Part shown: piece by piece, positions 2,264 through 56,102 of the stretch
How positions within the stretch are numbered: position 1 is the stretch's first letter
Layout of the letters: the number at the start of each line of letters is the position of its first letter
Source of the DNA: a phage
Direction: 5' to 3' (one strand)
Sequence record: PZ386967.1
Length of the DNA stretch: 64,000 nucleotides
Made by a program: the position numbers and the translations under genes
The notes under the pieces: model-generated
The model's input: only the letters and a program-made list of their open reading frames with translations
Told to the model about the DNA's origin: nothing
The model's database searches: none

Positions 2264-4159
2264 ATGGCAACTCAAAGCTTCAGCGTTGCGCCGTCCGTAC
2301 AGTGGACTGAGCGTGATGCCACGCTTCAGACGTCCCCATCCGTTGTTGTTCAGGGTGCGGCTGTCGGCAAATTCCAATGGGGTGAGGCAGAACTCCCTGT
2401 GTTGGTCACTGGTGGTGAAACTGGTCTGGTGAAGAAATTCTTCAAGCCAAACGATGCAACTGCCACCGACTTCTTAGTGATTGCTGACTTCCTGTCTTAC
2501 AGCTCTGTTGCATGGGTGACCCGTGTGGTCGGTCCGGCGGCACGCAACGCTGTAACCAAAGGTCAGACTGCAATCCTTATCCGCAACAAATTAGACTTCG
2601 AAACTGCGTCCCCATCTGCGTCTATTACCTGGACAGGCCGCTATGCTGGCTCTCTGGGTAACGACATTGCTGTGAACATCTGTGACGCTGCGCTGTTCCC
2701 GACCTGGGAATTCCGTAACAACTTCGCATATGCTCCGCAGGATGGCGAGTACCATATCGCCATCGTTGACAAAGTAGGTCGCATCACCGACTCTTCTGGC
2801 GCTGTTAGTCAGGTTGATCGTATCTCTGTATCCGGTACTGCCACCGCTGCTGGTTCCATCTCTGTTGCTGGTGAAGCCGTGGCGTACACTGACGCTGACA
2901 CCCCGGCGACTCTGGCGACAAAGATCGGAACTGCGCTGACGTCTCTGTCTGAAGTATATTCTTCTGTTGTCGTGAAGTCCAACACCGTCACCGTCACTCA
3001 CAAAGCAATCGGTCCTCAGGCTGCGACTGCGATTGTTCCAGACGCGAATGGCCTGACTGCTACCGCTGCCGTCACCACTGTTGGTGCTTCCGGTACGATC
3101 ATCGAGAAGTATGAACTGGTTCAGACCGCTCAGGGTTCTAAGAAATCTGATGGATCCAATGCATACTTCAAAGACGTGATCAACGGCACCTCAAATTGGG
3201 TGTACACCTTCGCCACTACCCTGGCTGCTGGTGTCATTGAACTCGAAGGTGGTGTAGACGATTACACTGGGAACCGTGTTGCGGCTATCCAGGCACTGAA
3301 CAACGCCGAAGCGTATGATGCCAAGCCAGTGTTCGGTTTCTGTGAAGAACTGATTGAGCAGCAGGCACTGATCGACCTGTCCACCGAGCGTAAAGACACA
3401 GTGTCCTTCGTGTCTCCTCTTCGCGATACGGTCGTCGGAAACCGTGGCCGTGAGATGGATGATGTTGTGGCCTGGCGTGAAAGTCTTGTTCGCGACTCCT
3501 CCTACTTCTTCATGGATGACAACTGGGCGTATGTGTACGACAAGTACAACGACAAAATGCGTTGGATTCCGGCTTGTGGCGGCACCGCAGGTGTTTGGGC
3601 GCGCAGCATTGAAATCGCGGGTATCTACAAATCTCCGGCGTTCCACAACCGTGGTAAATACAACAACTATAATCGAATGGCATGGTCTGCGTCTTCTGAT
3701 GAGCGTGCTGTGCTGTATCGCAACCAGATCAACAGCATTGTCACCTTCTCCAACGAAGGCATCGTGTTGTACGGCGACAAGACTGGCCTGACCCGCCCAT
3801 CTGCGTTCGACCGCATCAACGTTCGTGGTCTGTTCATTATGGCAGAGCAGAACATCGCAGCCATCGCCAAATACTACCTTGGTGAGAACAACGATGCATT
3901 CACTCGTGGGTTGTTCAGCAACGCTGTCCGCCCATATATCCGCCAGTTGGCCAACATGGGCGCGATCTATGACGGGATGGTGAAGTGTGATGAGGACAAC
4001 AACACTGCGGAAGTTATCGCTGCCAACCAGATGGTTGCTGGTATCTGGCTGAAGCCCGAGTACAGCATAAATTGGGTGTATCTCGACTTCGCCGCCGTTC
4101 GCCCGGACATGGAATTCAGTGAGATCGAATCCGGTGGTGGTATCGTAGCCGCTTCTTAA
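2264..4159 (+). CDS. gp18: Tail sheath protein (gp18-like)
   Basis: GKFQWG near N-terminus and C-terminal YGDKT...FDRINVRGLF resemble T4 gp18; ATG at 2264 has RBS GAAGGAA upstream (the track's 2231 start is TTG). Confidence 0.85.
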   Translation: MATQSFSVAPSVQWTERDATLQTSPSVVVQGAAVGKFQWGEAELPVLVTGGETGLVKKFFKPNDATATDFLVIADFLSYSSVAWVTRVVGPAARNAVTKGQTAILIRNKLDFETASPSASITWTGRYAGSLGNDIAVNICDAALFPTWEFRNNFAYAPQDGEYHIAIVDKVGRITDSSGAVSQVDRISVSGTATAAGSISVAGEAVAYTDADTPATLATKIGTALTSLSEVYSSVVVKSNTVTVTHKAIGPQAATAIVPDANGLTATAAVTTVGASGTIIEKYELVQTAQGSKKSDGSNAYFKDVINGTSNWVYTFATTLAAGVIELEGGVDDYTGNRVAAIQALNNAEAYDAKPVFGFCEELIEQQALIDLSTERKDTVSFVSPLRDTVVGNRGREMDDVVAWRESLVRDSSYFFMDDNWAYVYDKYNDKMRWIPACGGTAGVWARSIEIAGIYKSPAFHNRGKYNNYNRMAWSASSDERAVLYRNQINSIVTFSNEGIVLYGDKTGLTRPSAFDRINVRGLFIMAEQNIAAIAKYYLGENNDAFTRGLFSNAVRPYIRQLANMGAIYDGMVKCDEDNNTAEVIAANQMVAGIWLKPEYSINWVYLDFAAVRPDMEFSEIESGGGIVAAS

Positions 4160-4201
4160 TTTACTCCATGCCCTCTTCGGAGGGTACATTGAGGTATTGT
4201 T

Positions 4202-4504
4202 ATGAAAAGTTTTTCTCAATTTTTAGCAGAAGCAGGCCTAAAAGGTGACCTTCAGAAAGTTAAAGACTCCGTGATTGAATGGTTGGAAGACCAAGATGTA
4301 AGGCTCAAAAAGGGTGATATCGAAAATGGAGTATTTGGAGATTTCTTCCGCATAACCATTGATGATTTTGAATATACATATAATGGCAAAGAGATCAAAG
4401 TATTCGACCTGAAGAAAGATAAACAGGTTGTTAGCAAAGCTGCTGGAACTCGAGAAGCCCCAGGTGAACTCGGTAAATTGTTTAAGAAATACAGCAAAGT
4501 GTGA
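4202..4504 (+). CDS. Small basic protein with T4 internal-protein-like capsid targeting sequence
   Basis: N-terminus MKSFSQFLAE|AGL resembles T4 IP targeting sequence MKTYQEFIAE with L-x-E cleavage motif; followed by a terminator. Confidence 0.5.
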   Translation: MKSFSQFLAEAGLKGDLQKVKDSVIEWLEDQDVRLKKGDIENGVFGDFFRITIDDFEYTYNGKEIKVFDLKKDKQVVSKAAGTREAPGELGKLFKKYSKV

Positions 4505-4509
4505 CAAGA

Positions 4510-4537
4510 CCCCGCTTCGGCGGGGTTTTAAATTTTT
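4510..4537 (+). terminator. Rho-independent terminator
   Basis: Hairpin CCCCGC-TTCG-GCGGGG followed by a T-run. Confidence 0.7.
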
Positions 4538-4550
4538 CTAGATTATTTTA

Positions 4551-4578
4551 TTGAATTACTTTACTTCTTCAATAACTC
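4551..4578 (+). promoter_or_regulatory. T4-type early promoter (-35 TTTACT, 16-bp spacer, -10 TATAAT)
   Basis: Matches the repeated cassette; T4 early promoters have a GTTTAC-type -35. Conserved leader and start context follow. Confidence 0.55.
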
Positions 4579-4635
4579 ACGTATAATTCTAAACATAAGC
4601 AGTACGACACCAACTTGAAACGAAGGAACTATATC

Positions 4636-4992
4636 ATGACCAAGACCGAAATTAACGCTATCCTGAAAGAAATCGGCCTCTGCAACCTGAAACGCCGCGT
4701 CAATCCTTACCAGCCCGCAAAGCCAGTACGCGACAGCCAGGGAAAGATGATAAAAGGGATCTACTGTGCAGATGTTGGCCCAATGACTGTGACCAGTCCA
4801 CACATTGACAGATTTAACGCTATTGTTGAGGAGTTTTGTGGTAAGGTTCTGGGTGAACTAGCTAATGATTTATGCTCCCCAGATACCAAAGTTGTAGCTT
4901 TCGGGAGCCACCTCGTCACATTCCACCTCACCAGCTTCCGTGCCCACGGTGATTATCATGTGTATTATGCTCAGGTTAGCATTCGCAAATAG
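4636..4992 (+). CDS. Hypothetical early protein (119 aa)
   Basis: ATG inside the conserved GGAACTATATCATG start context; the track's 4615 start is an upstream TTG. Confidence 0.5.
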   Translation: MTKTEINAILKEIGLCNLKRRVNPYQPAKPVRDSQGKMIKGIYCADVGPMTVTSPHIDRFNAIVEEFCGKVLGELANDLCSPDTKVVAFGSHLVTFHLTSFRAHGDYHVYYAQVSIRK

Positions 4993-4998
4993 CAGTTT

Positions 4999-5025
4999 AC
5001 CCCGCTGAGGCGGGGTTTAGTTTTC
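4999..5025. terminator. Terminator hairpin between convergent genes
   Basis: ACCCCGC-TGAG-GCGGGGT followed by T-rich tract; lies between the + gene ending 4992 and the - gene ending 5017. Confidence 0.6.
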
Positions 5026-6801
5026 CAGTTCATACCGGATAAGACCACACCCCCAGATACGCCCCAACCCGGCTTCCACCGACAGCATATCCTCTGTTTT
5101 GCCTTCTATATCGTATCCAAGTTTAAGGAATTTCTCTTTCCTGAAATTGAATTTGTGTATACGTAAGCTATAGTCTGGTGTCACATATTTGTAATCAGGG
5201 GGAAGGATTTCCTTTTCAACAAATCCGTTATTCAGGTAAACATTTTTCAGACGACTGACAACACAACGATCACCAAAAGAATATACTGTCTCACCCCGAT
5301 GTCGAGCGATATAATATTTCAGCAAGCGTGAGAATGCGCCATGGCAATTGTTAGAAGCAAATCTCACCAATTCAATACCATGCACTCGTTTGGTAAACAA
5401 CATCACCGCCTGGATATTCCCAGTTTTGTCTACAAGGTGTATATAATCTGTCGCCACCACACCACCTTGTATATGGAATCGGTCGAGAAAGTCCTTGGAC
5501 GTCCTATAGGAGCCTTCCAAAATGGTATGTTGGCGAGCGTATGACAATGGTTTCCCTATCCCCAATTTTGCTTTTAGGAGTGATTTAACCACTTCCTGTT
5601 TGTCACGCCACTCATCTTCCCAGATATGGATTAATTGAATACCCTGGGATTCACAGTGCATAGTCTTTTCAAGATGGTAGTCTTTGTATCGATGTTTCTC
5701 CGAATGCCAATACAACCCATTAAATTCTATTGCCAACTTATGTTCTGGGCAGTATATGTCTATCTGGCGTGTGGTCGCCCTCCCGTCGAACATTTTACCT
5801 CTGAGGACGGAGAAATTACCAGATTCATAAACGACACCCAATGAATCCAGGTATGAACATATTTCTATTTCTGGCTGTGTTTGGCTTTGGCTGCTGGGGT
5901 ATGTGAAAGAGTTCCTATATTCTTCAGAAGAGAAATAGTGAGGTACGCCGTATTTTTCTTTTGAAATGATCCTGGTATTGGCCTGGCTTCTATCCCATAT
6001 AGCCTTTACCTTCAACGGATAATCAACCCCATATTTTAAGACGCATGTTTTCTTTCTCTTTTCTATAATGGAATTGAGGAACATTGGATGATCCACACCA
6101 TAGATCTTCCTCCAAGTCTCAATCACCCTTTCCCTCACTTCTGGCATTTTCATGACGTGTGATACGCCATAGCGTTCCATGACAGAAGCAGCCACTCTGT
6201 CCTTTATAACATCAGACTTCATAGGGTGGTCGACCCCATATTTCTTAAGGGCAGTTTCCCGTGACTTTTGTTTTACTTCTTCCAGTTGGAATATGTTGGC
6301 TACGCCATATTTCTCTGTTATGGCGTTTTCTAGGTTGGCCCGTTCTGAGCCTCCCACCTTCATTGATTCTCGTTGGCATTCTTCGGAACAAAACTTTTTG
6401 TATCTGGGCGGTTGGGCTTCCATTTCTAAGCCGACGTCAGCACCGCAAGTGGCACACTGCGACTTCGGAATATCGTACAGCCAAGCAGTTATCGCTTGTG
6501 GTTCTTCTAATAGGTCGTTGTGTGACACCACGTATCCAACAACATCAACCCCAGTATGGGCCGTGAGTAGGGGATGAGAGATAAGTTTGTAGTTCAACGA
6601 ACCATCTTTCTTCCTGAGTTTACTATCAACCCAAGAGCGGCATTCGGTTTCGGTCGTCGGGATGTCATCCAACAAACCCGGATTGCGTTTCATCGTTCCC
6701 AGCATGAATGATTTGCATTCGTCACTACAATACAACGCAGCCTTCCTGGTTGGGGTGAACGGTTTGTGGCAGCATAAACAATTTTTATCGGGGAATGGCA
6801 T
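5017..6801 (-). CDS. Free-standing homing-endonuclease-like protein: N-terminal zinc ribbon, five KYGV repeats, C-terminal PD-(D/E)XK-like nuclease domain
   Basis: CCHKPF...YCSDEC and CATCG...FCSEEC cysteine pairs; repeated ~28-aa units (EKYGVANIF, KKYGVDHPM, ERYGVSHVM, KIYGVDHPM, LKYGVDYPL, EKYGVPHYF); C-terminal IDIYCPEHKLAIEFNGLYWH...IWEDEW resembles Vsr/DUF559-type nucleases. Antisense insertion between gp18 and gp19. Likely ATG at 6801; the track starts at GTG 6816. Confidence 0.6.
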   Translation of the reverse strand: MPFPDKNCLCCHKPFTPTRKAALYCSDECKSFMLGTMKRNPGLLDDIPTTETECRSWVDSKLRKKDGSLNYKLISHPLLTAHTGVDVVGYVVSHNDLLEEPQAITAWLYDIPKSQCATCGADVGLEMEAQPPRYKKFCSEECQRESMKVGGSERANLENAITEKYGVANIFQLEEVKQKSRETALKKYGVDHPMKSDVIKDRVAASVMERYGVSHVMKMPEVRERVIETWRKIYGVDHPMFLNSIIEKRKKTCVLKYGVDYPLKVKAIWDRSQANTRIISKEKYGVPHYFSSEEYRNSFTYPSSQSQTQPEIEICSYLDSLGVVYESGNFSVLRGKMFDGRATTRQIDIYCPEHKLAIEFNGLYWHSEKHRYKDYHLEKTMHCESQGIQLIHIWEDEWRDKQEVVKSLLKAKLGIGKPLSYARQHTILEGSYRTSKDFLDRFHIQGGVVATDYIHLVDKTGNIQAVMLFTKRVHGIELVRFASNNCHGAFSRLLKYYIARHRGETVYSFGDRCVVSRLKNVYLNNGFVEKEILPPDYKYVTPDYSLRIHKFNFRKEKFLKLGYDIEGKTEDMLSVEAGLGRIWGCGLIRYELEN

Positions 6802-29804: not shown

Positions 29805-29981
29805 TGACCGACAACAAATTAAAACGTGTCGGACTTGATTGTCTTGACAATTCATTCCGCCCCAGTGATGTTCTGGTCGCCCAAATGGAAAACAACCGGG
29901 ATTTCATTGAAACTATGCTGGAGAACGCCGACGCGAACTCCAAACACTCCAAAGCCCAAAAAGGTCAAAACGATGATTGAA
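29805..29981 (+). CDS. Small protein (58 aa), coupled to the downstream vWA gene
   Basis: ATG 29805 to TGA 29979-29981, overlapping the vWA ATG (ATGATTGA); replaces the Pro/Thr-rich N-terminal extension in track ORF 29826. Confidence 0.35.
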
Positions 29982-32174
29982 TCATTAACATTTAAGAATG
30001 CGGTTGCGACCGTTGCGCCGTCTAACCATGTAATCGTTGTGGATATCTCCGGTTCCATGTATCGTTCACTTCCAGAAGTCCGTAAGCATCTGAAGGAGAA
30101 CCTGCCTTCCCTGGTGAAACCCGAAGATACTGTGAGCATCCTTTACTTTTCATCTCGCGGTGATTTCGGAACGGTATTTGCCGGACGCCAGATCGGTGTC
30201 GCATCTGACCTGAGCGAGCTGAATAAGCTGATCGATCGCTTCCTGCAACCGTCCGGATGTACTGGCTTTGTTGAGCCGTTGAAACTGGCGATGGACACTG
30301 CTCGTAGCCTGAAGAAGCCTGGCTATGTCAACAACCTGGCGTTCATGACTGACGGGTATGACAACTGCTGGCGTACCAACGAAATCTTACTGGTTGCTGA
30401 GACCCTGCCATTTGCTTTCGATAACATTACTTTCATCGAATACGGCTGGCACTGTAACCGCGAACTGCTGGCGCAGATGGCCGAACGCTCCGGTGCGACC
30501 CACGTGTTTGCCGAAGGTCAGACCGAATACCAGACCGAACTAGAAAACGTGCTGAAGTCATCAGTGCCGAAGGTGAAAGTTGATGTCCCAGTCATCTACA
30601 CCCATGCCATCTACGTCGAAAACGGTGTGGCAACAGTACTGGCGGTGCAGGACGATGACTCTCACCCGGTCGGCTATGTGAGCATCCCTGAGAGCGTCAC
30701 CAAGCTGTGGGTTGTAAACCCTAACATGATCGACCAGCTTGATGCGCTGGCGGACATCCAGGCGGCATACGTGCTGGCGTTCTACGGCGTACACATCATG
30801 GACGCAGACCTGGTATGGGCTGCGCTGAAGAAGACGGGCGACGTTCGCTTCATCAAACAGTACAGCAACTGCTTTACCAAGCAGGACTACTCCAACATCA
30901 AGAACGATCTGGTACAGGCGATTGTTGACGACCAGCTGCGCGGCGTTGACGGTATTGACTATGACCTGGTTCCGGCTGAAGATGCGACGACCGTCGTTGA
31001 CGTGCTGACGTATCTGGCTGAAGCTGGCGTGTCTGTTGCCACCAAACATCCTATGTTCTCCTACAAGAGCATTGGTCGCGGTACTGTGCAGAAAGCGGAC
31101 GATACCGAAGACAAACTGGCAGAACAGATCGCGAATGCTCAGTCCAAAGAAGAGCGTAAAGCCCTGGCTCTCAAGCTGGCTGAGCACGAAGAATGGACGC
31201 CGTCGTTTGAACCTGCCAACGATCTGGGCGTTATCTCAATCAGCGATCTGGTCTACAACTCTGAGCGCCCGAACATCAGTGTGCGCACTATTCAGCATGG
31301 TACTGTGACTGTCCCTGAGTTCGCACAGAAGAAGTTTGGTCTGCCTGAAGAACTGGATACTTTCCAGTGGCGCAACTACACCATCGTCAAAGATGGTATC
31401 ATCAACGTGAAGACCCTGCCGTTCAAGGCTGATATCGAAGTTGTACAGAAGCTGATCGAAATGGGCGTCCACGTGTTTGGTGGACCGGAAGTGTTTGTCC
31501 TGAACCTGGAAAGCGTACCGCTGGTCAACCGCGCCATGGTCAAGAACATCAGTGCTGCTCAGTTCTTTGCGGATAATGTCCGTTTGGAAGCCCTGAAAGG
31601 CAAGCAGAAGGTGCTGAAGTTCTATCGAGACGCCCTGGTTGGTAAAGGTAACGCCAAAGGCCTGGCAGTACAGTACGGCGCTGAGGCGGCCGAGTTCCTG
31701 TCCTCCTACGGCATCCGCGATTACGGCTTCTCACCGAAGACTGAGACCAAAGAGTCTACCGACTTCTACATGAGCCGGGAGCTGAACGTGAAGATCGCTG
31801 GCGCTTCATCTCTACCGTCTATCGCAGCGGTACAGAAGAAGATTGCCGAGAACAAGAAACTCAATGCTGGTGACTTGTTCATCGCCAATGCTCTGAAAGA
31901 GTACGAAGCATTCGTGAAGTCTCCTATGATCACTGCCGTGCCTGAAGCCTTACAGAAACAGCTGATCGAAAACTGGATCGACGCTGCTGCCAAGGCGGCC
32001 ATCACCGAAGTCCGTGCCCTGAACAAGACACTGTCTAAAGTGGTGTATGGTATCGTTGCTGGCCACGGCTGGTTCACCGACCTCGACCTGGAAGAGTCCA
32101 CCATGGAAGTTGAAGTGGATGGCGTGAAGTACAAGGTCACTGCCGAACTGACAGAGAAAGAAATCAAAATCTAA
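29973..32174 (+). CDS. von Willebrand factor A (vWA) domain protein, 733 aa
   Basis: MIDAS motif DISGSM near N-terminus followed by a vWA-like region (LAFMTDG); long C-terminal extension of unknown function. Confidence 0.6.
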   Translation: MIESLTFKNAVATVAPSNHVIVVDISGSMYRSLPEVRKHLKENLPSLVKPEDTVSILYFSSRGDFGTVFAGRQIGVASDLSELNKLIDRFLQPSGCTGFVEPLKLAMDTARSLKKPGYVNNLAFMTDGYDNCWRTNEILLVAETLPFAFDNITFIEYGWHCNRELLAQMAERSGATHVFAEGQTEYQTELENVLKSSVPKVKVDVPVIYTHAIYVENGVATVLAVQDDDSHPVGYVSIPESVTKLWVVNPNMIDQLDALADIQAAYVLAFYGVHIMDADLVWAALKKTGDVRFIKQYSNCFTKQDYSNIKNDLVQAIVDDQLRGVDGIDYDLVPAEDATTVVDVLTYLAEAGVSVATKHPMFSYKSIGRGTVQKADDTEDKLAEQIANAQSKEERKALALKLAEHEEWTPSFEPANDLGVISISDLVYNSERPNISVRTIQHGTVTVPEFAQKKFGLPEELDTFQWRNYTIVKDGIINVKTLPFKADIEVVQKLIEMGVHVFGGPEVFVLNLESVPLVNRAMVKNISAAQFFADNVRLEALKGKQKVLKFYRDALVGKGNAKGLAVQYGAEAAEFLSSYGIRDYGFSPKTETKESTDFYMSRELNVKIAGASSLPSIAAVQKKIAENKKLNAGDLFIANALKEYEAFVKSPMITAVPEALQKQLIENWIDAAAKAAITEVRALNKTLSKVVYGIVAGHGWFTDLDLEESTMEVEVDGVKYKVTAELTEKEIKI

Positions 32175-32885: not shown

Positions 32886-32902
32886 GCATAACTTTTATTA
32901 AA

Positions 32903-32968
32903 TCCCCAACAAACGTTGGGGATTTTTAACTTTTAGGGGTTTACTTCCTTTAAGGAATGTCCTATTAT
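32903..32968 (+). promoter_or_regulatory. Terminator plus T4-type early promoter cassette (copy B)
   Basis: Near-identical to copy A (1-bp indel); -35 TTTACT 32940-32945, -10 TATTAT 32963-32968. Confidence 0.55.
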
Positions 32969-33019
32969 TCAATAACTGGCGAACGATGGGTTCACCGGGT
33001 TGAAAGGTAAGATTATATC

Positions 33020-33259
33020 ATGAAGAACAAAATGGTCGAAACTTCAGTAGAGATTGATCGCAATTGGGGATTGCTCCGCGCTAAAGGGTTCCGTCGTGTG
33101 TATGCGACCAAAGAAGTCTACGCACAGCGCCGTGACGTTATCATCAGCAAGAAAGGCAAAGAGTGGGTTGCTGAAGAAGTTGATGTCGAGACAGGCATCG
33201 TAGGAAAGGTAAAGGCCAAGGCCGTGATCCTCTTCGCTCTTCTGAAGCACATCAGTTAA
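33020..33259 (+). CDS. Hypothetical protein (79 aa)
   Basis: ORF after cassette copy B with RBS AAAGG. Confidence 0.4.
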   Translation: MKNKMVETSVEIDRNWGLLRAKGFRRVYATKEVYAQRRDVIISKKGKEWVAEEVDVETGIVGKVKAKAVILFALLKHIS

Positions 33260-33318
33260 TTCTATAACTTTGGGCGGGGTATGATTACCCCGTCTATTTG
33301 AAATGCAGGAACTATACC

Positions 33319-33825
33319 ATGACCGATCAACAAATTCAAGATTTATTTTACCTCGTCCATGATAAGTCCCACATCATGCGCCCCGGTACTGTTTCCCCTG
33401 CCGTCCGTGATCTGGTGCAAGAATTGCGCGAACCACAGACGACCACACTTTATCGCGGGTTGCCTAAAGAGGACGTTGCGCGTTTAGAGATGATGTTTGA
33501 ACGAGGCGACATGTTCCAGACATGGGATTCTTGCCTTAGCTTCAGTGAACTGAAGCATGTGGCCAAAAAATTTTCTAAATCGTACGGAACCCAAGCTGTT
33601 GCCCGCATTTGTTACAAACATCGAAACAGACTCCCGGAGGGGCTTAATGTCTATGGTTCTCTAGAAAAATTTGTGAACAAAGGCGATGAATCAGAAATGG
33701 ATATGCTGGACTTGGCGTCCATGGAGAAAGAATGGATATTCTGCCAGCCTCGCGTCATACCAGTTTCAAGAAAAATGGCAACAGACGGCACGATGGTTTT
33801 TACCGTATCACTTGTTACCCTATAA
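33319..33825 (+). CDS. Hypothetical protein (168 aa)
   Basis: ATG in conserved GGAACTATACCATG context; flanked by identical 31-bp hairpin-leader repeats. Confidence 0.5.
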   Translation: MTDQQIQDLFYLVHDKSHIMRPGTVSPAVRDLVQELREPQTTTLYRGLPKEDVARLEMMFERGDMFQTWDSCLSFSELKHVAKKFSKSYGTQAVARICYKHRNRLPEGLNVYGSLEKFVNKGDESEMDMLDLASMEKEWIFCQPRVIPVSRKMATDGTMVFTVSLVTL

Positions 33826-33877
33826 ACCCACGGCGGGGTATGATTACCCCGTCTATTTGAAACCAAGAGACTATATC

Positions 33878-34255
33878 ATGAAAAAGTTAATCCTCGCTGT
33901 TGCCCTGCTGGGCGCTTCCTTTGCTGCTGTTTCCGCCCCTCCTGTCATCACCGGAGTGTCTACCAACGGTGTTTATGCTTTCAAGGCGTATGGCCAAGAC
34001 CTCGTTCTGTATAAGAACGGGAAGATGATTGAGCGCTGCGTATCAGACGACGTGAATCGTGGGATCGACAATCAGGGTAGCCCATACGTCCTGGACATCT
34101 ATTCCTGCTCCAACGGGACGAAGTCCTTTGGCGTCAAGACCTTTGGCAACGTCGCCGACGGTGGCTGGGGCTTCATGTTCGAAACCCGCAACCACCACCC
34201 GGTCAAGACCATGCAAGAAGAGTTCTTGATCTCTGTCGGGGGTGGAACATTATGA
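33878..34255 (+). CDS. Secreted protein with signal peptide (125 aa)
   Basis: MKKLILAVALLGASFAAVSA|PP signal peptide; conserved start context. Confidence 0.5.
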   Translation: MKKLILAVALLGASFAAVSAPPVITGVSTNGVYAFKAYGQDLVLYKNGKMIERCVSDDVNRGIDNQGSPYVLDIYSCSNGTKSFGVKTFGNVADGGWGFMFETRNHHPVKTMQEEFLISVGGGTL

Positions 34256-34539
34256 CGCCTGAACAACGCCGTTCCGTGAAAGTCATGGTGAAAGGTAAGA
34301 CTCAGCTGAGTTATGTCCAGTCTGCCAATGTTGTCCGCCTGATGGAAGTCAAGAACGACATCGACAACTCCCGATTCCAATCGGCACTCTACGGGCTTCT
34401 CGAGTTCGTTCTTCGCCAGGCTGATCTTGGTCCTGTCTATACTCTTGATGATCTGACCAAGCTGTTGAACACGGGCGGGGAAGGTTTCGACACTGCTCGT
34501 ATCCTGATTGACGGTGGACCTAAAGAAGACGAGGTATAA
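34252..34539 (+). CDS. Hypothetical protein (95 aa)
   Basis: Start overlaps the upstream stop (ATGA). Confidence 0.4.
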   Translation: MTPEQRRSVKVMVKGKTQLSYVQSANVVRLMEVKNDIDNSRFQSALYGLLEFVLRQADLGPVYTLDDLTKLLNTGGEGFDTARILIDGGPKEDEV

Positions 34540-34540
34540 T

Positions 34541-34699
34541 TTGGATAAAGAATTGGTTTGGGAAATTGTGAAGGGTGTCCTAGTAATAATCGCGGTGGTT
34601 TTCATCTTGGGTGGAAACTTCTTCTATTGGTTATTCCGATCCGACCAGAAACGTCGCGAACGCAAGGAGAAAGAGAGAAAGGATCGATGGATGCGCTAA
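34541..34699 (+). CDS. Small membrane protein (~52 aa), single TM helix and basic tail; start uncertain
   Basis: VLVIIAVVFILGGNFFYWLF hydrophobic segment followed by KRRERKEKERK; possible TTG start after GAGG. Confidence 0.25.
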   Translation: MDKELVWEIVKGVLVIIAVVFILGGNFFYWLFRSDQKRRERKEKERKDRWMR

Positions 34700-34731
34700 C
34701 TAAGGGATAACCCTATATCCCGAGGTGTGTC

Positions 34732-35181
34732 ATGTTCCTTACATCCTTTATTGACTGGTTGAACATCATTAACGGCCTGAGGATCCCTGTTGGGAACCTC
34801 GGGCTTTCTCGTTCTTCTATGCCGCAAATCGATGCCGACAAACAAGAAGATTTTCACAAATATCTTGAAGACAACGGCGTGTCCATAGATGCTGTGCAAG
34901 TGCCCATCAAAATGCTTCGTCTCACCCAGAACGAAATCAACAAGATGAAGGTCTGGAAGATCATGAAGCAGATCAGAAATAAGAAACCTATGGGTCGAGT
35001 TTGGGTGTCTTCTGACAATTACGTTGTTGACGGTTCTCACCGATTTGTCGCTGCGTTGAACATGGACGGCAAACAGCGCATGAAGGTCTACAAAGTTGAT
35101 TTGCCAGCGATGGAATTTGTTAAACTCGCTAAACAGTTTCAGGGTGTGCGATACAGAACGGTCAGCGATACCCGTTTCTGA
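34732..35181 (+). CDS. ParB-like nuclease-domain protein
   Basis: YVVDGSHRFVAA resembles the DGxHR motif of ParB/Srx-fold domains. Confidence 0.4.
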   Translation: MFLTSFIDWLNIINGLRIPVGNLGLSRSSMPQIDADKQEDFHKYLEDNGVSIDAVQVPIKMLRLTQNEINKMKVWKIMKQIRNKKPMGRVWVSSDNYVVDGSHRFVAALNMDGKQRMKVYKVDLPAMEFVKLAKQFQGVRYRTVSDTRF

Positions 35182-35260
35182 ATACGATAGTTTATTGAAA
35201 CCCTTTACTCATCATGGTGAGCCGCCTATCATTTCATCCAATGAAATAAGGAGAATCACC

Positions 35261-35947
35261 ATGAAACGTTTAATCCTCGGGGTCGTGCTGTCTGGTCTGG
35301 CATTACCCGCCGCTGCTAAGCTGAACCCCACAGGTGATAAACTGTGGTCCGACCTTTCCTATTGTGCTGGGTTCTCCCAGGCGGTTGCCATCGACAAGTC
35401 TGGTTCCATAGAGAACTTCGCTGAACTCTGGAACACAGGCAACGTCTCCACTGCTGTCGTCAATGCCGGAATTGAGTTCAACCGTTACAAACAGGGAGCC
35501 TATAACCTCAAGGGCTACCTCAATGACGACGAATTTAACCGTGGAGGCATGGAGGCTGGCGATTTGATCATGACTGGGCGTATGGGCACCCAAGGCCGAA
35601 TGACCGTAAGACAGTGCCGTTCGCTCCCTTCTCCGGCATTACAGAAGGGTGTGCAGGTTGGTCGCCGCCACCTGAACCTCATCAACGATGGCAACCAGTG
35701 CGTCAAAGTATTCGAATACAGCGCTACGCAGACCTCTGATCGCGTCCTGAAGAAGGAATGGCGCACCCGCGCTCTTGGTCTCAGAGCCTGGCTGGTTGAG
35801 AACGATTATTACTTTGAAGACAGGGTTCAGAACGGTCTGAAAGACCTGGCCACGAATCTGAGCGTGAACCTTGATGATCCTCGCATGTCGCGCGAACTCC
35901 AGCAGACTCGTGTTGACTGCGACAATATGATGAAGGAGAACGAGTGA
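35261..35947 (+). CDS. Secreted/periplasmic protein (228 aa)
   Basis: MKRLILGVVLSGLALPAAA|K signal peptide; RBS AGGAGA. Confidence 0.5.
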   Translation: MKRLILGVVLSGLALPAAAKLNPTGDKLWSDLSYCAGFSQAVAIDKSGSIENFAELWNTGNVSTAVVNAGIEFNRYKQGAYNLKGYLNDDEFNRGGMEAGDLIMTGRMGTQGRMTVRQCRSLPSPALQKGVQVGRRHLNLINDGNQCVKVFEYSATQTSDRVLKKEWRTRALGLRAWLVENDYYFEDRVQNGLKDLATNLSVNLDDPRMSRELQQTRVDCDNMMKENE

Positions 35948-36273
35948 TGAAATGTAAAATCTTGCTCTTGTTGGTACTGATAGCCGGATGTGTAAACGCC
36001 GCGCCACCGTCCAAACTGAACACATGTGTGGCATGGATGGAGACGTATCAGCAGTTCCACCCAGATGACAAAGACACATCTATCCTCCTGTCTGACTTTG
36101 AGGGAGAGCTGAAGCGCCTTGATCTGTTCAGTGTTGATCAGATAGAGAATGCGCTGGATCTTCCCATGATGCTGACTGCGGCTGATAACAGTCCACAAAC
36201 GAAGAAAGACCTGATGTATTGTCGGGGGATTGCCCAGGACTTTGTCGGATTTCAAAATAAAGTTTCGGGTTAA
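35944..36273 (+). CDS. Lipoprotein (109 aa)
   Basis: Signal peptide with lipobox LIAGC; start overlaps the upstream stop. Confidence 0.5.
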   Translation: MMKCKILLLLVLIAGCVNAAPPSKLNTCVAWMETYQQFHPDDKDTSILLSDFEGELKRLDLFSVDQIENALDLPMMLTAADNSPQTKKDLMYCRGIAQDFVGFQNKVSG

Positions 36274-36309
36274 AATTTAGCCCTACATTGTGAACTGAAG
36301 GAATACACT

Positions 36310-37179
36310 GTGATGCTCCTGACCAAAACAATCGCTGCGGCGATTATCGAAAAGAATAAGGCTTTTGCCCCCAACGTAGCCAAAGTTATGTTGGTACACG
36401 AAGACGCTCGCGTGATCTTCGCCGAGAAGTTCGAGATGGGCGCGAAGTTCTGGTATGCCGACAACTTACGTGAGAGCAAACTTCAGGGTATCATCCACAA
36501 ACTGACTCTGGTCGCCAAGCGTAATGACCAGGGTGACTGGGTCGGCGTTTCTGACTTCAGTACGAAGATCACCCCAAAGGCTCCGCTTTCTCGTCAAGAG
36601 CGCATTCTGGAAGCCCAGGAAAAGCTGCGTGCGGCTCGGAGTACCACAAAGGCGAAGCCAGATGCAAGCCCTGTCATCAAGCCAGCGGTTGTTCCTAAGT
36701 CCAAATACCTCCCGCCCGTGAGTCAAAAGTCTGTGGAGCAATTGGTTGAGAAGCGCAAGGGTGACGTTGTGATGAAGTCTGACTCTTCAGTGGAGTCGTT
36801 CAAGCCGGATCCAGCAGAAGTACAGGCGCTGGCAGAAAAGGTAAAGAATTCACAATTCATTTCCCTGCGCGAACTTGAACCGCCTACTCGCCGTCGTATC
36901 GCCAACGAGCTGTTTGTGTCGTTCAGGTCGGATGGCAAGATCGTCCTGTGCAAAGCCCTGCGCGATGCAATCCCTTGGACAACTCTGAACATGATGGTCA
37001 CTCGCGACTTCAAGCGTTTTGGTATCATGCAAGGCAAGGACTACAACGTCAACCAGAGCGGGACTTATGTTAATCGCGCCATGTGTGACAAACTGACCTT
37101 CCCAGAAGACACCGGAACGATCCGTGTCGTTCTGAATTGGGATGACAAGCTGAACATGTATGTTGGCGATTTCCAATAA
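36310..37179 (+). CDS. Hypothetical protein (289 aa)
   Basis: Long ORF with RBS GAAGGAA; GTG 36310 or ATG 36313 start. Confidence 0.45.
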   Translation: MMLLTKTIAAAIIEKNKAFAPNVAKVMLVHEDARVIFAEKFEMGAKFWYADNLRESKLQGIIHKLTLVAKRNDQGDWVGVSDFSTKITPKAPLSRQERILEAQEKLRAARSTTKAKPDASPVIKPAVVPKSKYLPPVSQKSVEQLVEKRKGDVVMKSDSSVESFKPDPAEVQALAEKVKNSQFISLRELEPPTRRRIANELFVSFRSDGKIVLCKALRDAIPWTTLNMMVTRDFKRFGIMQGKDYNVNQSGTYVNRAMCDKLTFPEDTGTIRVVLNWDDKLNMYVGDFQ

Positions 37180-37235
37180 TCAATAACCTCGGGCGGCTTA
37201 TCATAAAGCTGCCCTTTCATTTGAGAGACTATATC

Positions 37236-37898
37236 ATGGAAAAACTTTATTCTATTATCGTCGGTCCTGATCCTGACGGATTATTCTTCGCCTCGTTGTC
37301 TTATATTGCCCACGCCCGTATCGGTAGCTATTACGCATATTGCACACGTGGCCACGACGGTTCCAATATCCTCCATTATAGCCGCCTGAACGATTTCCTG
37401 GCACTTCAACCAGAAGATGTTGTGCTGGCGCGTCGCGTGTTCATCGACTTCAACGCGATGCACAACAACGAAATCGACGCTCGCTACCATGCCATGCGTT
37501 CTATGGACGGGGGAGATTGCATTTATCGTATCGACCATTTTAGTGAGTTTACCGAATGTATTGATTGGTTTATCTCTGATAAAGTGATGGGTGAAAGAAT
37601 CGTCACAACTCCGTGGGCACATGCGGAACAACTTCGTGTGTCTACCGATGCGTACAAAGAAGTCGACAATCTGTGCAACAAGTTCCGCATCTCGGTGACC
37701 TGTAATCAAGACCTGGGCGAAGAGATACAATGGACAGCTGAGTCTCCTCATTTCAGTGGCCTGGTGATGACGGCCGAAACCCGTTCCCGTGCTGTTGTCC
37801 AGTTAGTACTCTGGGCGTTCTACCAGCGCACCCCGTTCTCGTACATGGGGCAGAAAGAGATTGATGAACTCCTGAAGTCTCACGCGGTGGAGGTGTAA
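37236..37898 (+). CDS. Hypothetical protein (220 aa)
   Basis: ATG in conserved GAGACTATATCATG context after a hairpin. Confidence 0.5.
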   Translation: MEKLYSIIVGPDPDGLFFASLSYIAHARIGSYYAYCTRGHDGSNILHYSRLNDFLALQPEDVVLARRVFIDFNAMHNNEIDARYHAMRSMDGGDCIYRIDHFSEFTECIDWFISDKVMGERIVTTPWAHAEQLRVSTDAYKEVDNLCNKFRISVTCNQDLGEEIQWTAESPHFSGLVMTAETRSRAVVQLVLWAFYQRTPFSYMGQKEIDELLKSHAVEV

Positions 37899-37899
37899 T

Positions 37900-38178
37900 A
37901 TGGCTGGCGTATGGTGTGATGTCTTGCTGGTTCGTTACAGCGTAAATGGGTGTGTCCAAGTGCGTTCCGCCTTCTATCCAGTACCGTTCTCTTCCGGTGG
38001 CCTGACGGTTCAGCGAGTTCTCGATATTGAGGCAGAACTGAACAAAAAGTCTTTTGGTGTACAAGTCCTGGGGTACGATCTTCTGAATGAAATGATGGTT
38101 GAAGAAGACAAAGTTGAGACTGTCATTGGTCGTCAGGAGATGGAATCGTTAATCTCCAAATCGGAGGTCAAATCATGA
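37900..38178 (+). CDS. Hypothetical protein (92 aa)
   Basis: Tightly packed ORF immediately after the preceding stop. Confidence 0.35.
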   Translation: MAGVWCDVLLVRYSVNGCVQVRSAFYPVPFSSGGLTVQRVLDIEAELNKKSFGVQVLGYDLLNEMMVEEDKVETVIGRQEMESLISKSEVKS

Positions 38179-38426
38179 GTCCCAACATGGCAATAATCTG
38201 GGTTGGTGAATCGTCAATGCGTTGTCCTCACAAGACGATCACCTTCTTGGACGATGAGCGCCTGGCCGAACAACGGGTTGAAGTCCGCGAAATGCAGGTT
38301 TCTTCAAAGGTGGTGAACGTTCCTGTGACTAATATTCAGACTTTTAAGCCTTGCGTCAGAGTGATTTGTGAACGCTGTGGATGTTATGGCACGATGACGA
38401 CTGAAGACGTGGCGAAAGGCTATTAA
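38175..38426 (+). CDS. Hypothetical Cys-rich small protein (83 aa)
   Basis: Start overlaps the preceding stop; C-terminal CERCGCYG motif. Confidence 0.35.
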   Translation: MSPNMAIIWVGESSMRCPHKTITFLDDERLAEQRVEVREMQVSSKVVNVPVTNIQTFKPCVRVICERCGCYGTMTTEDVAKGY

Positions 38427-55307: not shown

Positions 55308-56102
55308 ATGGCCATTCTAAAACTTGGCAACCGTGGCACTGAAGTGAAGGCACTTCAGAATAGCCTCAACAAAATCGGCTTCACCCTCGTCGCTGATGGT
55401 ATCTTTGGCAAGGCAACAGAGAACGCCGTCAAGACTGTTCAGGCGGGTGCGGGGCTTGTCATTGATGGTATCGTGGGTCCAAAGACCTCCTATGCTATTC
55501 GCAACGCCGGAGACGCCCATCAGGATCATCTAACTGAGTCAGACCTGATTGATGCTGCTAACGATCTGGGTGTTGACCTCGCCTCTGTCAAGGCGGTGAA
55601 TCAGGTTGAGTCGCGCGGCACGGGCTTCACCAAGTCAGGTAAGATCAAGACATTATTTGAGCGCCACATCATGTATAAGAAGCTGATGGCGAAGTTCGGA
55701 CAGGCTCGAGCGAATGCCATGGGACATATGTACCCGACGTTGGTCAGTCCTTCCGCAGGCGGGTACACGGGAGGCGACGCGGAGTTGGATCGACTTCATG
55801 CGGCCATCAACATCGATGAGGATTGTGCGTACGAGAGCGCCTCTTACGGTCTCTTCCAGATCATGGGATTCAACTGCCAGATCTGTGGATATGCCAACGC
55901 CAAGGAGATGTTCAACGACTTCCTGACAGGAGAACGTGCTCATTTGATGGCATTCGTGAAGTTCATCAAGGCTGACGCCAAGCTCTGGCAGGCTCTGAAG
56001 GACAAGAACTGGTCTGAATTTGCACGGCGCTATAATGGTCCGGCGTATGCCAAGAACCAGTACGACAAGAAGCTCGCAGCAGCATACAAGAGTTTCAGTT
56101 AA
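55308..56102 (+). CDS. Endolysin: N-terminal peptidoglycan-binding domain plus C-terminal muramidase-like domain
   Basis: LKLGNRGTEVKALQNSLNKIGF...DGIFGKATENAVKTVQ is a PG_binding_1-type repeat; C-terminal EDCAYESASYGLFQIMGFN...YNGPAY resembles DUF3380-type N-acetylmuramidases; RBS GGAGGT. Confidence 0.7.
   Translation: MAILKLGNRGTEVKALQNSLNKIGFTLVADGIFGKATENAVKTVQAGAGLVIDGIVGPKTSYAIRNAGDAHQDHLTESDLIDAANDLGVDLASVKAVNQVESRGTGFTKSGKIKTLFERHIMYKKLMAKFGQARANAMGHMYPTLVSPSAGGYTGGDAELDRLHAAINIDEDCAYESASYGLFQIMGFNCQICGYANAKEMFNDFLTGERAHLMAFVKFIKADAKLWQALKDKNWSEFARRYNGPAYAKNQYDKKLAAAYKSFS

Follow-up and report, generated by a model that had tools for sequence, protein, structure and literature searches.

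An overlapping gene pair of Ackermannviridae annotated as a spanin may instead encode an early periplasmic exclusion-type complex

In a 64,000-nucleotide stretch of phage DNA (sequence record PZ386967.1; hereafter the window), the six genes between positions 33878 and 36273, all on the + strand, raise the question of whether their exported products and the ParB-like protein encoded among them form one system, and whether such a system would exclude superinfecting phages, control lysis or, as the annotation of many relatives has it, act as a spanin. An earlier note on this DNA had named two signal peptides, a lipobox and a ParB-like motif here, and all four features are present where it placed them. 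The answer tentatively favored here is that these 2.4 kb belong to an early-type operon and hold three unrelated kinds of gene, and that its conserved and translationally coupled core, a gene pair for a 228-amino-acid (aa) protein and a 108-aa partner, would specify an early periplasmic exclusion-type complex and not a spanin. The most useful results are that the spanin annotation of the pair disagrees with the features that define spanins, and that the ParB-like protein is a virion protein. Judged by sequence, the source phage is an Agtrevirus-like, ViI-like member of the Ackermannviridae: positions 33000-37200 of the window are, from end to end, 96-97% identical to Enterobacter phage fGh-Ecl02 and Escherichia phages ZQ1 and AV101, and 80-95% identical to about 270 further Ackermannviridae (Agtrevirus, Limestonevirus, Kuttervirus, Taipeivirus). 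Coordinates of all features are collected in Table 1.

Export signals and their conservation, gene coupling, promoter conservation, distribution and the departures from known spanins were computed here, with the signal-peptide calls resting on sequence rules and on conservation across homologues. A crude six-frame scan for signal-peptide-like N-termini flagged four open reading frames (ORFs) in the 64 kb, three of which begin at 33878, 35261 and 35947, so that their clustering is more than chance would give. In a lipobox scan of the window, the ORF at 35947 was the sole one on a coding strand to carry that motif. The products of the genes at 33878 and 35261 both conform to the rules for Sec export and cleavage by signal peptidase I, having a basic n-region, an h-region of 7-15 residues and small residues at -3 and -1. 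Since these export signals hold, the three exported proteins can reasonably be expected to have a role directed at the envelope. The two leaders had been described as similar, and a shared MK[KR]LIL is indeed present; it is generic signal-peptide composition and no sign of kinship. An origin of the two genes by duplication was rejected, the mature proteins being without similarity.

The 228-aa protein begins with MKRLILGVVLSGLALPAAA, followed by K, and cleavage is predicted between the two, after Ala19. Among 14 homologues P16, A17 and A19 are invariant and the -2 position is variable. The apolar core comprises 12 residues and has a KD19 value of 1.70, about the same as the 1.66 of the signal peptide that is cleaved from T4 Spackle; the true i-spanins lambda Rz and T4 PseT.3 have values of 2.63, with a core of 20 residues, and 2.24, with a core of 19, respectively. 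Homologues of 30-35% identity have different h-regions, yet each shows a short h-region and then a small-x-small site, and the orthologue in phage LIMEstone1 (ORF100, 94% identical) carries a SignalP-based note, 'putative signal peptide'. The protein is thus predicted to be exported and cleaved by signal peptidase I, not anchored in the membrane. Released into the periplasm, it would probably be disulfide-bonded through its four invariant cysteines. Between phages that infect Salmonella, Escherichia, Klebsiella, Dickeya and Serratia its identity is 83-99%, which speaks for a conserved target and against a receptor specific to the host. An exhaustive profile search with the 228-aa family in 1.84 billion representative proteins returned 11 hits only; the full-length relatives whose contigs were examined are all Ackermannviridae-like, and a scan of IMG/VR gave the same family only.

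The lipobox that the earlier note saw in the second gene of the pair is real, with its cysteine at residue 15: L-I-A-G-C15 fits the pattern [LVI][ASTVI][GAS]C at the end of the signal peptide and is followed by Val at +2. The start assigned to the gene in that note, a GTG at 35944, is less likely than the ATG at 35947, one codon downstream, because the ATG overlaps the upstream stop codon as TGATG. From the lipobox and its +2 Val, the partner is probably tethered to the outer membrane in the window's lineage. The motif occurs in 3 of the 21 IMG/VR genomes and in 6 of the 36 full-length clusters at 90% identity, all belonging to that lineage, and in a near relative free of it the residues are MAGS. 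A lipobox is likewise missing from Limestonevirus, Kuttervirus, Taipeivirus, Miltonvirus, Nezavisimistyvirus and two distant metagenomic relatives, which carry a ..VxA/xP site (the slash marking the point of cleavage), predicted to be a signal-peptidase-I site. Across the family, in which identity ranges from 34 to 100%, A18 (-1) is invariant and P20 (+2) nearly so, and C27 and C92 are invariant. The partner would accordingly appear to be a plain secreted protein in most lineages, with a lipobox acquired in the lineage of the window.

The two genes overlap by 1 nt (TGATG) or 4 nt in 21 of 21 genomes and in the distant contigs as well. The pair is found in 272 (228-aa protein) and 282 (108-aa protein) phage records and is near-universal in the Ackermannviridae of Enterobacterales; the profile search and the IMG/VR scan found it in no sequences other than Ackermannviridae-like ones. 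Nothing significant came from sequence searches of Pfam, NCBIfam and the PDB with the two proteins or with the 125-aa protein encoded at 33878.

Despite widespread annotation, the pair is, on the sequence comparisons that follow, not a two-component spanin. Its homologues are called 'i-spanin' and 'o-spanin / Rz-like spanin' in phage Marshall, in many RefSeq records, in phrog_3843 and in UniRef, and the label traces to the Marshall genome and to SpaninDB. The Marshall annotation comes from an undergraduate-course genome announcement in which spanins go unmentioned and no experiment on them is reported. In SpaninDB Marshall is entered as a singleton two-component spanin whose periplasmic span exceeds that of every other among the 528 systems, and the same survey counts as spanin-less Vi01, Maynard, SFP10, SJ2, SJ3, CBA120, ECML-4, PhaxI, phiSboM-AG3 and a Dickeya relative (PMC6139136). 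This discrepancy, in which Marshall has a spanin and near-identical relatives have none, is explained by Marshall's possession of the minority lipobox allele. Marshall is classed as a Kuttervirus, and positions 3001-6579 of its locus L001 are about 95% identical to positions 33000-37200 of the window, as against 80-90% for a typical Kuttervirus, which suggests that the module arrived by a recent mosaic exchange.

Were the label correct, the 228-aa protein would be held in the inner membrane by an uncleaved signal anchor, its partner would be an outer-membrane lipoprotein, and the two together would fuse the membranes at lysis. Like lambda Rz/Rz1 and T4 PseT.3/PseT.2, the pair consists of adjacent, overlapping genes (the 'separated' architecture) whose products are both envelope-bound, and here the second carries a canonical lipobox, the sole one found on a coding strand of the window; added to these are the SpaninDB entry and the name of phrog_3843. 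The adjacency of overlapping genes is, however, the only defining feature of spanins that the pair shares. An i-spanin has an N-terminal transmembrane domain of type II (N-in/C-out), whereas the hydrophobic segment of the 228-aa protein is signal-peptide-like, with its short core and invariant P-A-x-A. An i-spanin also has a mostly helical periplasmic domain with a coiled coil, and the SpaninDB tables credit the Marshall 'i-spanin' (98% identical to the 228-aa protein) with no coiled coils (0), 35% helix and 12% strand, the T4-like i-spanins with about 82-85% helix and one coiled coil (PMC6139136). The LIMEstone1 authors, unlike SpaninDB, noted a 'coiled coil' (COILS program) for the orthologue. 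The partner is unusually helical for an o-spanin, at 56% for the Marshall protein versus roughly 20-25% (PMC6139136). Its lipobox, which in an o-spanin would be conserved, is absent from 18 of the 21 genomes, 30 of the 36 full-length clusters and all distant homologues, while the proteins themselves stay conserved, and in Miltonvirus and Nezavisimistyvirus the supposed i-spanin is shortened to its N-terminal 126-165 residues with the partner retained.

Comparisons by hhalign of the pair with lambda Rz and T4 PseT.3/PseT.2 gave probabilities below 1%, and PHROG matches were limited to the pair's own families, phrog_4260 (unknown function) and phrog_3843. Unlike the lambda and T4 spanins, with which it has no sequence similarity, the pair stands behind an early-type promoter and 19 kb from the endolysin. 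The literature searched yielded no relevant functional study of these genes in Ackermannviridae, and no experiment on a need for them in outer-membrane disruption or on complementation of Rz/Rz1 mutants. A genuine spanin is therefore a very improbable reading of the pair. The point has some practical weight: more than 270 Ackermannviridae genomes carry the pair, many of them candidates for phage therapy or biocontrol. If the label is wrong, as the evidence indicates, annotation pipelines are propagating an error, and these phages are left without a known mechanism of outer-membrane disruption, a question left open in PMC6139136.

When would the pair be expressed? The earlier note had spoken of an early block, and this is plausible from an enriched promoter-like motif. 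TTTACT-N15-18-TAYNAT occurs six times in the 64-kb window (at 4560, 32569, 32583, 32940, 35204 and 54535), always on the + strand, where 0.06 copies are expected by chance, and it probably represents the early promoter class of this phage, read by the host RNA polymerase. T4 early promoters typically have a -35 element of the GTTTAC type. At the 35204 site, directly upstream of the pair, the -35 (TTTACT) and -10 (TAnnAT) elements are kept in Aglimvirinae, Kuttervirus and Taipeivirus and the spacer sequence varies; at the site homologous to 32940 the LIMEstone1 authors marked a 'putative early promoter'. The T4 late promoter TATAAATA was found at two sites in the whole window, neither of them near 33878-36273, and a literature search for Ackermannviridae transcriptomes covering these genes found nothing relevant.

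From these results we infer complex formation, expression timing and an exclusion function for the pair. Driven by its own promoter of the sigma70/T4-early type, the pair would yield two products exported by Sec. Conservation, the invariant cysteines, the gene overlap and the early-type promoter suggest an early disulfide-bonded periplasmic complex with a conserved target, and the conserved promoter fits an early function such as exclusion. The complex would form early in infection and act on a conserved envelope or phage-entry component, either a common envelope constituent of Enterobacterales or the entry machinery of the phage family itself. Its role would most likely be to protect the infected cell from superinfection or outside attack at the periplasmic stage, functionally in the manner of T4 Spackle (Sp, gp61.3), which inhibits the gp5 tail lysozyme in the periplasm and so brings about superinfection exclusion. 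Like Spackle, the partner is small (about 90 aa when mature), exported and predicted to be all-alpha, with a single cysteine toward either end of the mature chain, and Ackermannviridae phages carry a T4-gp5-like hub/lysozyme gene (AV101 annotation). Unlike Spackle, which acts alone, the partner has an obligate-looking 228-aa companion; the hhalign probability is 9% and confined to the signal peptide, and Spackle is absent from the PDB matches given by Foldseek with a low-confidence partner model. An exclusion role is a best guess by analogy. Of the earlier proposal of exclusion or lysis inhibition, it can be said that the export signals and the early-type promoter fit it and that nothing specific supports either function.

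Several further points weigh against an early exclusion complex. Sequence rules, in place of a dedicated predictor, underlie the call of signal-peptide cleavage, and the promoter motifs are what make early expression of the region plausible. The h-region of the partner is long (17-19 residues) in several genera, and the LIMEstone1 authors noted a 'signal peptide and transmembrane domain' for it, so that in those genera the partner might remain anchored in the inner membrane. AlphaFold2 (pLDDT being its predicted local distance difference test score) gave for the mature partner, from 29 sequences, five helices at a low-confidence pLDDT of 56, with which Foldseek retrieved nothing at E<1 from the PDB or BFVD; for the 228-aa protein with 14 close homologues the pLDDT was 33 and the model unusable. 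Profile comparisons with T4 Spackle, RI, holin T and PseT.2/PseT.3 and with lambda Rz all stayed below 10% probability, and the pair showed no similarity to any known exclusion protein, Llp-type proteins, or PDB or BFVD entries. The T4 spanin genes, too, lie outside a lysis cassette, so the position of the pair does not exclude a role in lysis.

Such a role, other than that of a spanin, is a serious rival, if an unlikely one: the pair could be a periplasmic regulator of lysis timing, comparable to the T4 RI antiholin sensor, or a factor that weakens the outer membrane. The Ackermannviridae have no accepted spanin, so some other factor must handle the outer membrane; no holin is annotated in the records examined, and PMC10892097 makes no mention of one. 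The pair, periplasmic in location, is conserved among the Ackermannviridae that infect Enterobacterales, and in size pattern and location it recalls the periplasmic domains of T4 holin T and RI (about 220 aa with cysteine pairs, and a helical partner of about 90 aa). Against this, the pair has no homology to T or RI, the 228-aa protein lacks a transmembrane domain and so cannot be a holin, the promoter is of the sigma70/early type with no late TATAAATA nearby, and the endolysin is far off. The endolysin gene itself, at 55308-56099 (+), encodes PG_binding_1 and N-acetylmuramidase (PF11860) domains (E=6e-59), and no obvious holin or spanin gene adjoins it.

Exclusion could also work by masking a receptor, the lipoprotein blocking the phage's own outer-membrane protein receptor in the way of T5 Llp or phi80 Cor. 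In the window the partner would indeed be a small phage-encoded lipoprotein of the outer-membrane type behind an early-type promoter, a likeness restricted to the window's lineage. Unlike Llp and Cor, the family lacks the lipid anchor in most of its members, and the pair is 60-99% conserved across hosts with different surfaces, a poor fit to a host-specific receptor; no similarity to known structures was found. Ackermannviridae phages, moreover, recognize their hosts mainly through O-antigen or capsule tailspikes, and receptor masking is improbable here.

A broader possibility, likewise doubtful, is that the pair is an unrecognized periplasmic two-protein system peculiar to the Ackermannviridae of Enterobacterales, serving either non-spanin outer-membrane disruption or lysis control, or else exclusion at a conserved periplasmic step of entry, with the lipid anchor as an optional addition peculiar to one lineage. 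Being small, strongly conserved and periplasmic, with an early-type promoter before their genes and no known relatives, the two proteins make, in any case, a clean experimental target.

Other envelope-related genes lie close to the pair in its relatives. In Miltonvirus and Nezavisimistyvirus a gene annotated 'superinfection exclusion protein' is found a few genes 3' of it (L005 6674-7147; L006 5367-5831; L007 4993-5457), no counterpart of that size being visible at 37221-38426 of the window, and Kuttervirus has a P22 gp17-like gene (PMC9409062). In distant relatives the genes 3' of the pair encode more exported proteins (L034 2745-3077; L035 6237-7028; L005 4954-5733), among them a 110-aa signal-peptide protein and an SPFH/Band-7 lipoprotein (lipobox LLTGC). 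The neighborhood of the pair seems to be a hotspot for envelope-targeted genes. An SPFH lipoprotein of phage Sajous1, gp200, gave 3 spectra in virion mass spectrometry.

The earlier note had treated the exported proteins and the ParB-like protein as one cluster, and that claim did not survive comparison of their distributions: the 125-aa protein occurs in 105 records, the pair in the 272 and 282 already cited, and the ParB-like protein in 432, including Vibrio phages without the pair. A single functional system embracing all genes from 33878 to 36273 is the least probable reading considered. In favor of such a system, contigs whose proteins share no more than 30-35% identity still have the order ParB-like gene, secreted protein, partner; what argues against the system is that a conserved promoter lies between the ParB-like gene and the pair, that the ParB-like gene persists without the pair in Vibrio relatives, that the ParB-like protein is found in virions, where the pair has not been reported, and that the 125-aa gene is much narrower in distribution. 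In phage ChubbyThor (L003 4130-4960), furthermore, the ParB-like gene and the pair have a NUMOD3 homing endonuclease gene between them, an insertion that shows the two to be separable. A single ParB-plus-export system was rejected on the strength of the promoter, the insertion, the virion location and the distributions.

What, then, is the ParB-like protein? It carries the motif YVVDGSHRFVAA, whose DGSHR, together with LTQNE, is invariant in 20 homologues down to 39% identity. The family matches phrog_1033, 'ParB-like partition protein', through 16 of its 20 members (best E=1.5e-6), and also phrog_26754, 8071 and 620; names in UniRef and GenBank are ParB/Sulfiredoxin or ParB-domain protein. 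Sequence searches of Pfam and the PDB gave nothing significant, the ddrB-ParB family of Pfam (PF18763) being matched weakly (E=0.07) by one member. Membership of the ParB/Srx superfamily, as called earlier, is borne out at the level of sequence by the invariant DGSHR and the PHROG profiles. In the Vibrio phages (Campanilevirus), the ParB-like gene adjoins that for the gp2 DNA-end protector and is not followed by a secreted pair.

Published proteomes of relatives establish the protein as a virion component there. Mass spectrometry of purified LIMEstone1 virions identified the orthologue there (17.31 kDa) by 5 peptides, at 36% coverage, and according to the LIMEstone1 authors every unknown structural protein of theirs has a structural counterpart in ViI. 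The Vi01 orthologue bears the annotation 'phage associated protein'. The Sajous1 'ParB N-terminal domain' protein, gp192, gave 11 spectra from CsCl-purified virions, although its orthology is presumed from name and gene order, which tempers this part of the case. A protein packaged in virions is not an envelope factor, and the ParB-like protein has no link to export. It would be cytoplasmic, packaged in the virion and probably delivered with the DNA. A search with tblastn placed a homologous domain inside a 4,514-aa DarB-like antirestriction protein of Ralstonia phage Eline (E=2e-6) that also carries SLT, methylase and helicase domains, and solo and polyvalent ParB domains have been described as injected early effectors (Iyer et al. 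2017, PMC5512222). The protein resembles the DdrB-type and polyvalent ParB domains of phage P1 DdrB and of DarB-like antirestriction proteins in its DGxHR arginine motif and ParB-like PHROG matches, in the virion location of its orthologues and in the Eline homology. It differs in the weakness of the PF18763 match, in a comparison made by sequence only, which leaves it a candidate member of the DdrB-type clade. By analogy with solo DdrB-type domains it would act as a nucleoside triphosphate-dependent or DNA-acting early effector.

The third kind of gene is that for the 125-aa protein, which begins with MKKLILAVALLGASFAAVSA before a predicted cleavage and then PP. Homologues of 52-99% identity keep the n-h-c signal peptide MKKLI..ALA..SF.A.xA/ and two cysteines. 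It is known mainly from Aglimvirinae and Taipeivirus and from few Kuttervirus, and because of this occurrence in some genera only the gene is called accessory. Its product is predicted to be an independent accessory periplasmic protein, separate from the pair.

Table 1. Features in and around positions 33878-36273 of the window
Feature	Positions	Strand	Remarks
Terminator-like intrinsic hairpin after the acyl carrier protein gene	32900..32925	+	11-bp stem and T-run; closes the upstream unit
Promoter-like site TTTACT-N17-TATTAT	32940..32968	+	Probable start of the unit holding 33878-36273; downstream of the first terminator
Secreted protein (predicted), 125 aa, phrog_5474	33878..34255	+	Sec/signal-peptidase-I signal peptide; two conserved Cys
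Cytoplasmic protein (predicted), 95 aa, phrog_4458	34252..34539	+	4-nt overlap with the 125-aa gene
Single-pass membrane protein (predicted), 52 aa, phrog_14464 'membrane protein'	34541..34699	+	Very basic C-terminal tail
Stand-alone ParB/Srx-like domain protein, 149 aa	34732..35181	+	Invariant DGSHR and LTQNE; ParB-like PHROG matches
Promoter-like site TTTACT-N17-TATCAT	35204..35232	+	Directly upstream of the 228-aa gene
Secreted periplasmic protein (predicted), 228 aa, phrog_4260	35261..35947	+	'i-spanin' in many relatives; signal peptide, four invariant Cys
Exported partner (predicted), 108 aa, phrog_3843 'Rz-like spanin'	35947..36273	+	Predicted all-alpha; lipobox LIAGC, two invariant Cys
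Terminator-like intrinsic hairpin ending the unit	37191..37214	+	Follows the 289-aa gene 36310-37179

The two hairpins are predicted to bracket the transcription unit that holds 33878-36273, and the LIMEstone1 record has a terminator annotated at the site homologous to the first. The start of the 52-aa gene was chosen to match a 159-bp gene annotated in AV101 and Marshall. Its product, absent from the earlier note, has a 21-residue uncharged run (KD19 2.66), an extremely basic tail, RSDQKRRERKEKERKDRWMR, a predicted N-out/C-in topology and a weak Pfam match to a holin family (E=0.06).

The genes around the region belong to T4-like replication and nucleotide metabolism; among them are those for vWA, acyl carrier and HU-like proteins and for a DinG-like helicase. 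A 175-aa protein encoded at 33298-33825 (+) matches PHROG 832, 'RNA polymerase ADP-ribosylase' (Alt-like), with E=1e-15, at profile positions 1265-1425 of 1480, that is, in the C-terminal part; it looks like one more solo copy of a domain usual in large injected proteins. In LIMEstone1, P46FS4 and EspM4VN the gene found near here is denV. The vWA-domain protein encoded at 29826-32174 (+) has an orthologue in LIMEstone1, ORF108 (81 kDa), confirmed in virions. Since it and the ParB-like protein are both packaged, this 'replication' region encodes several virion-packaged proteins.

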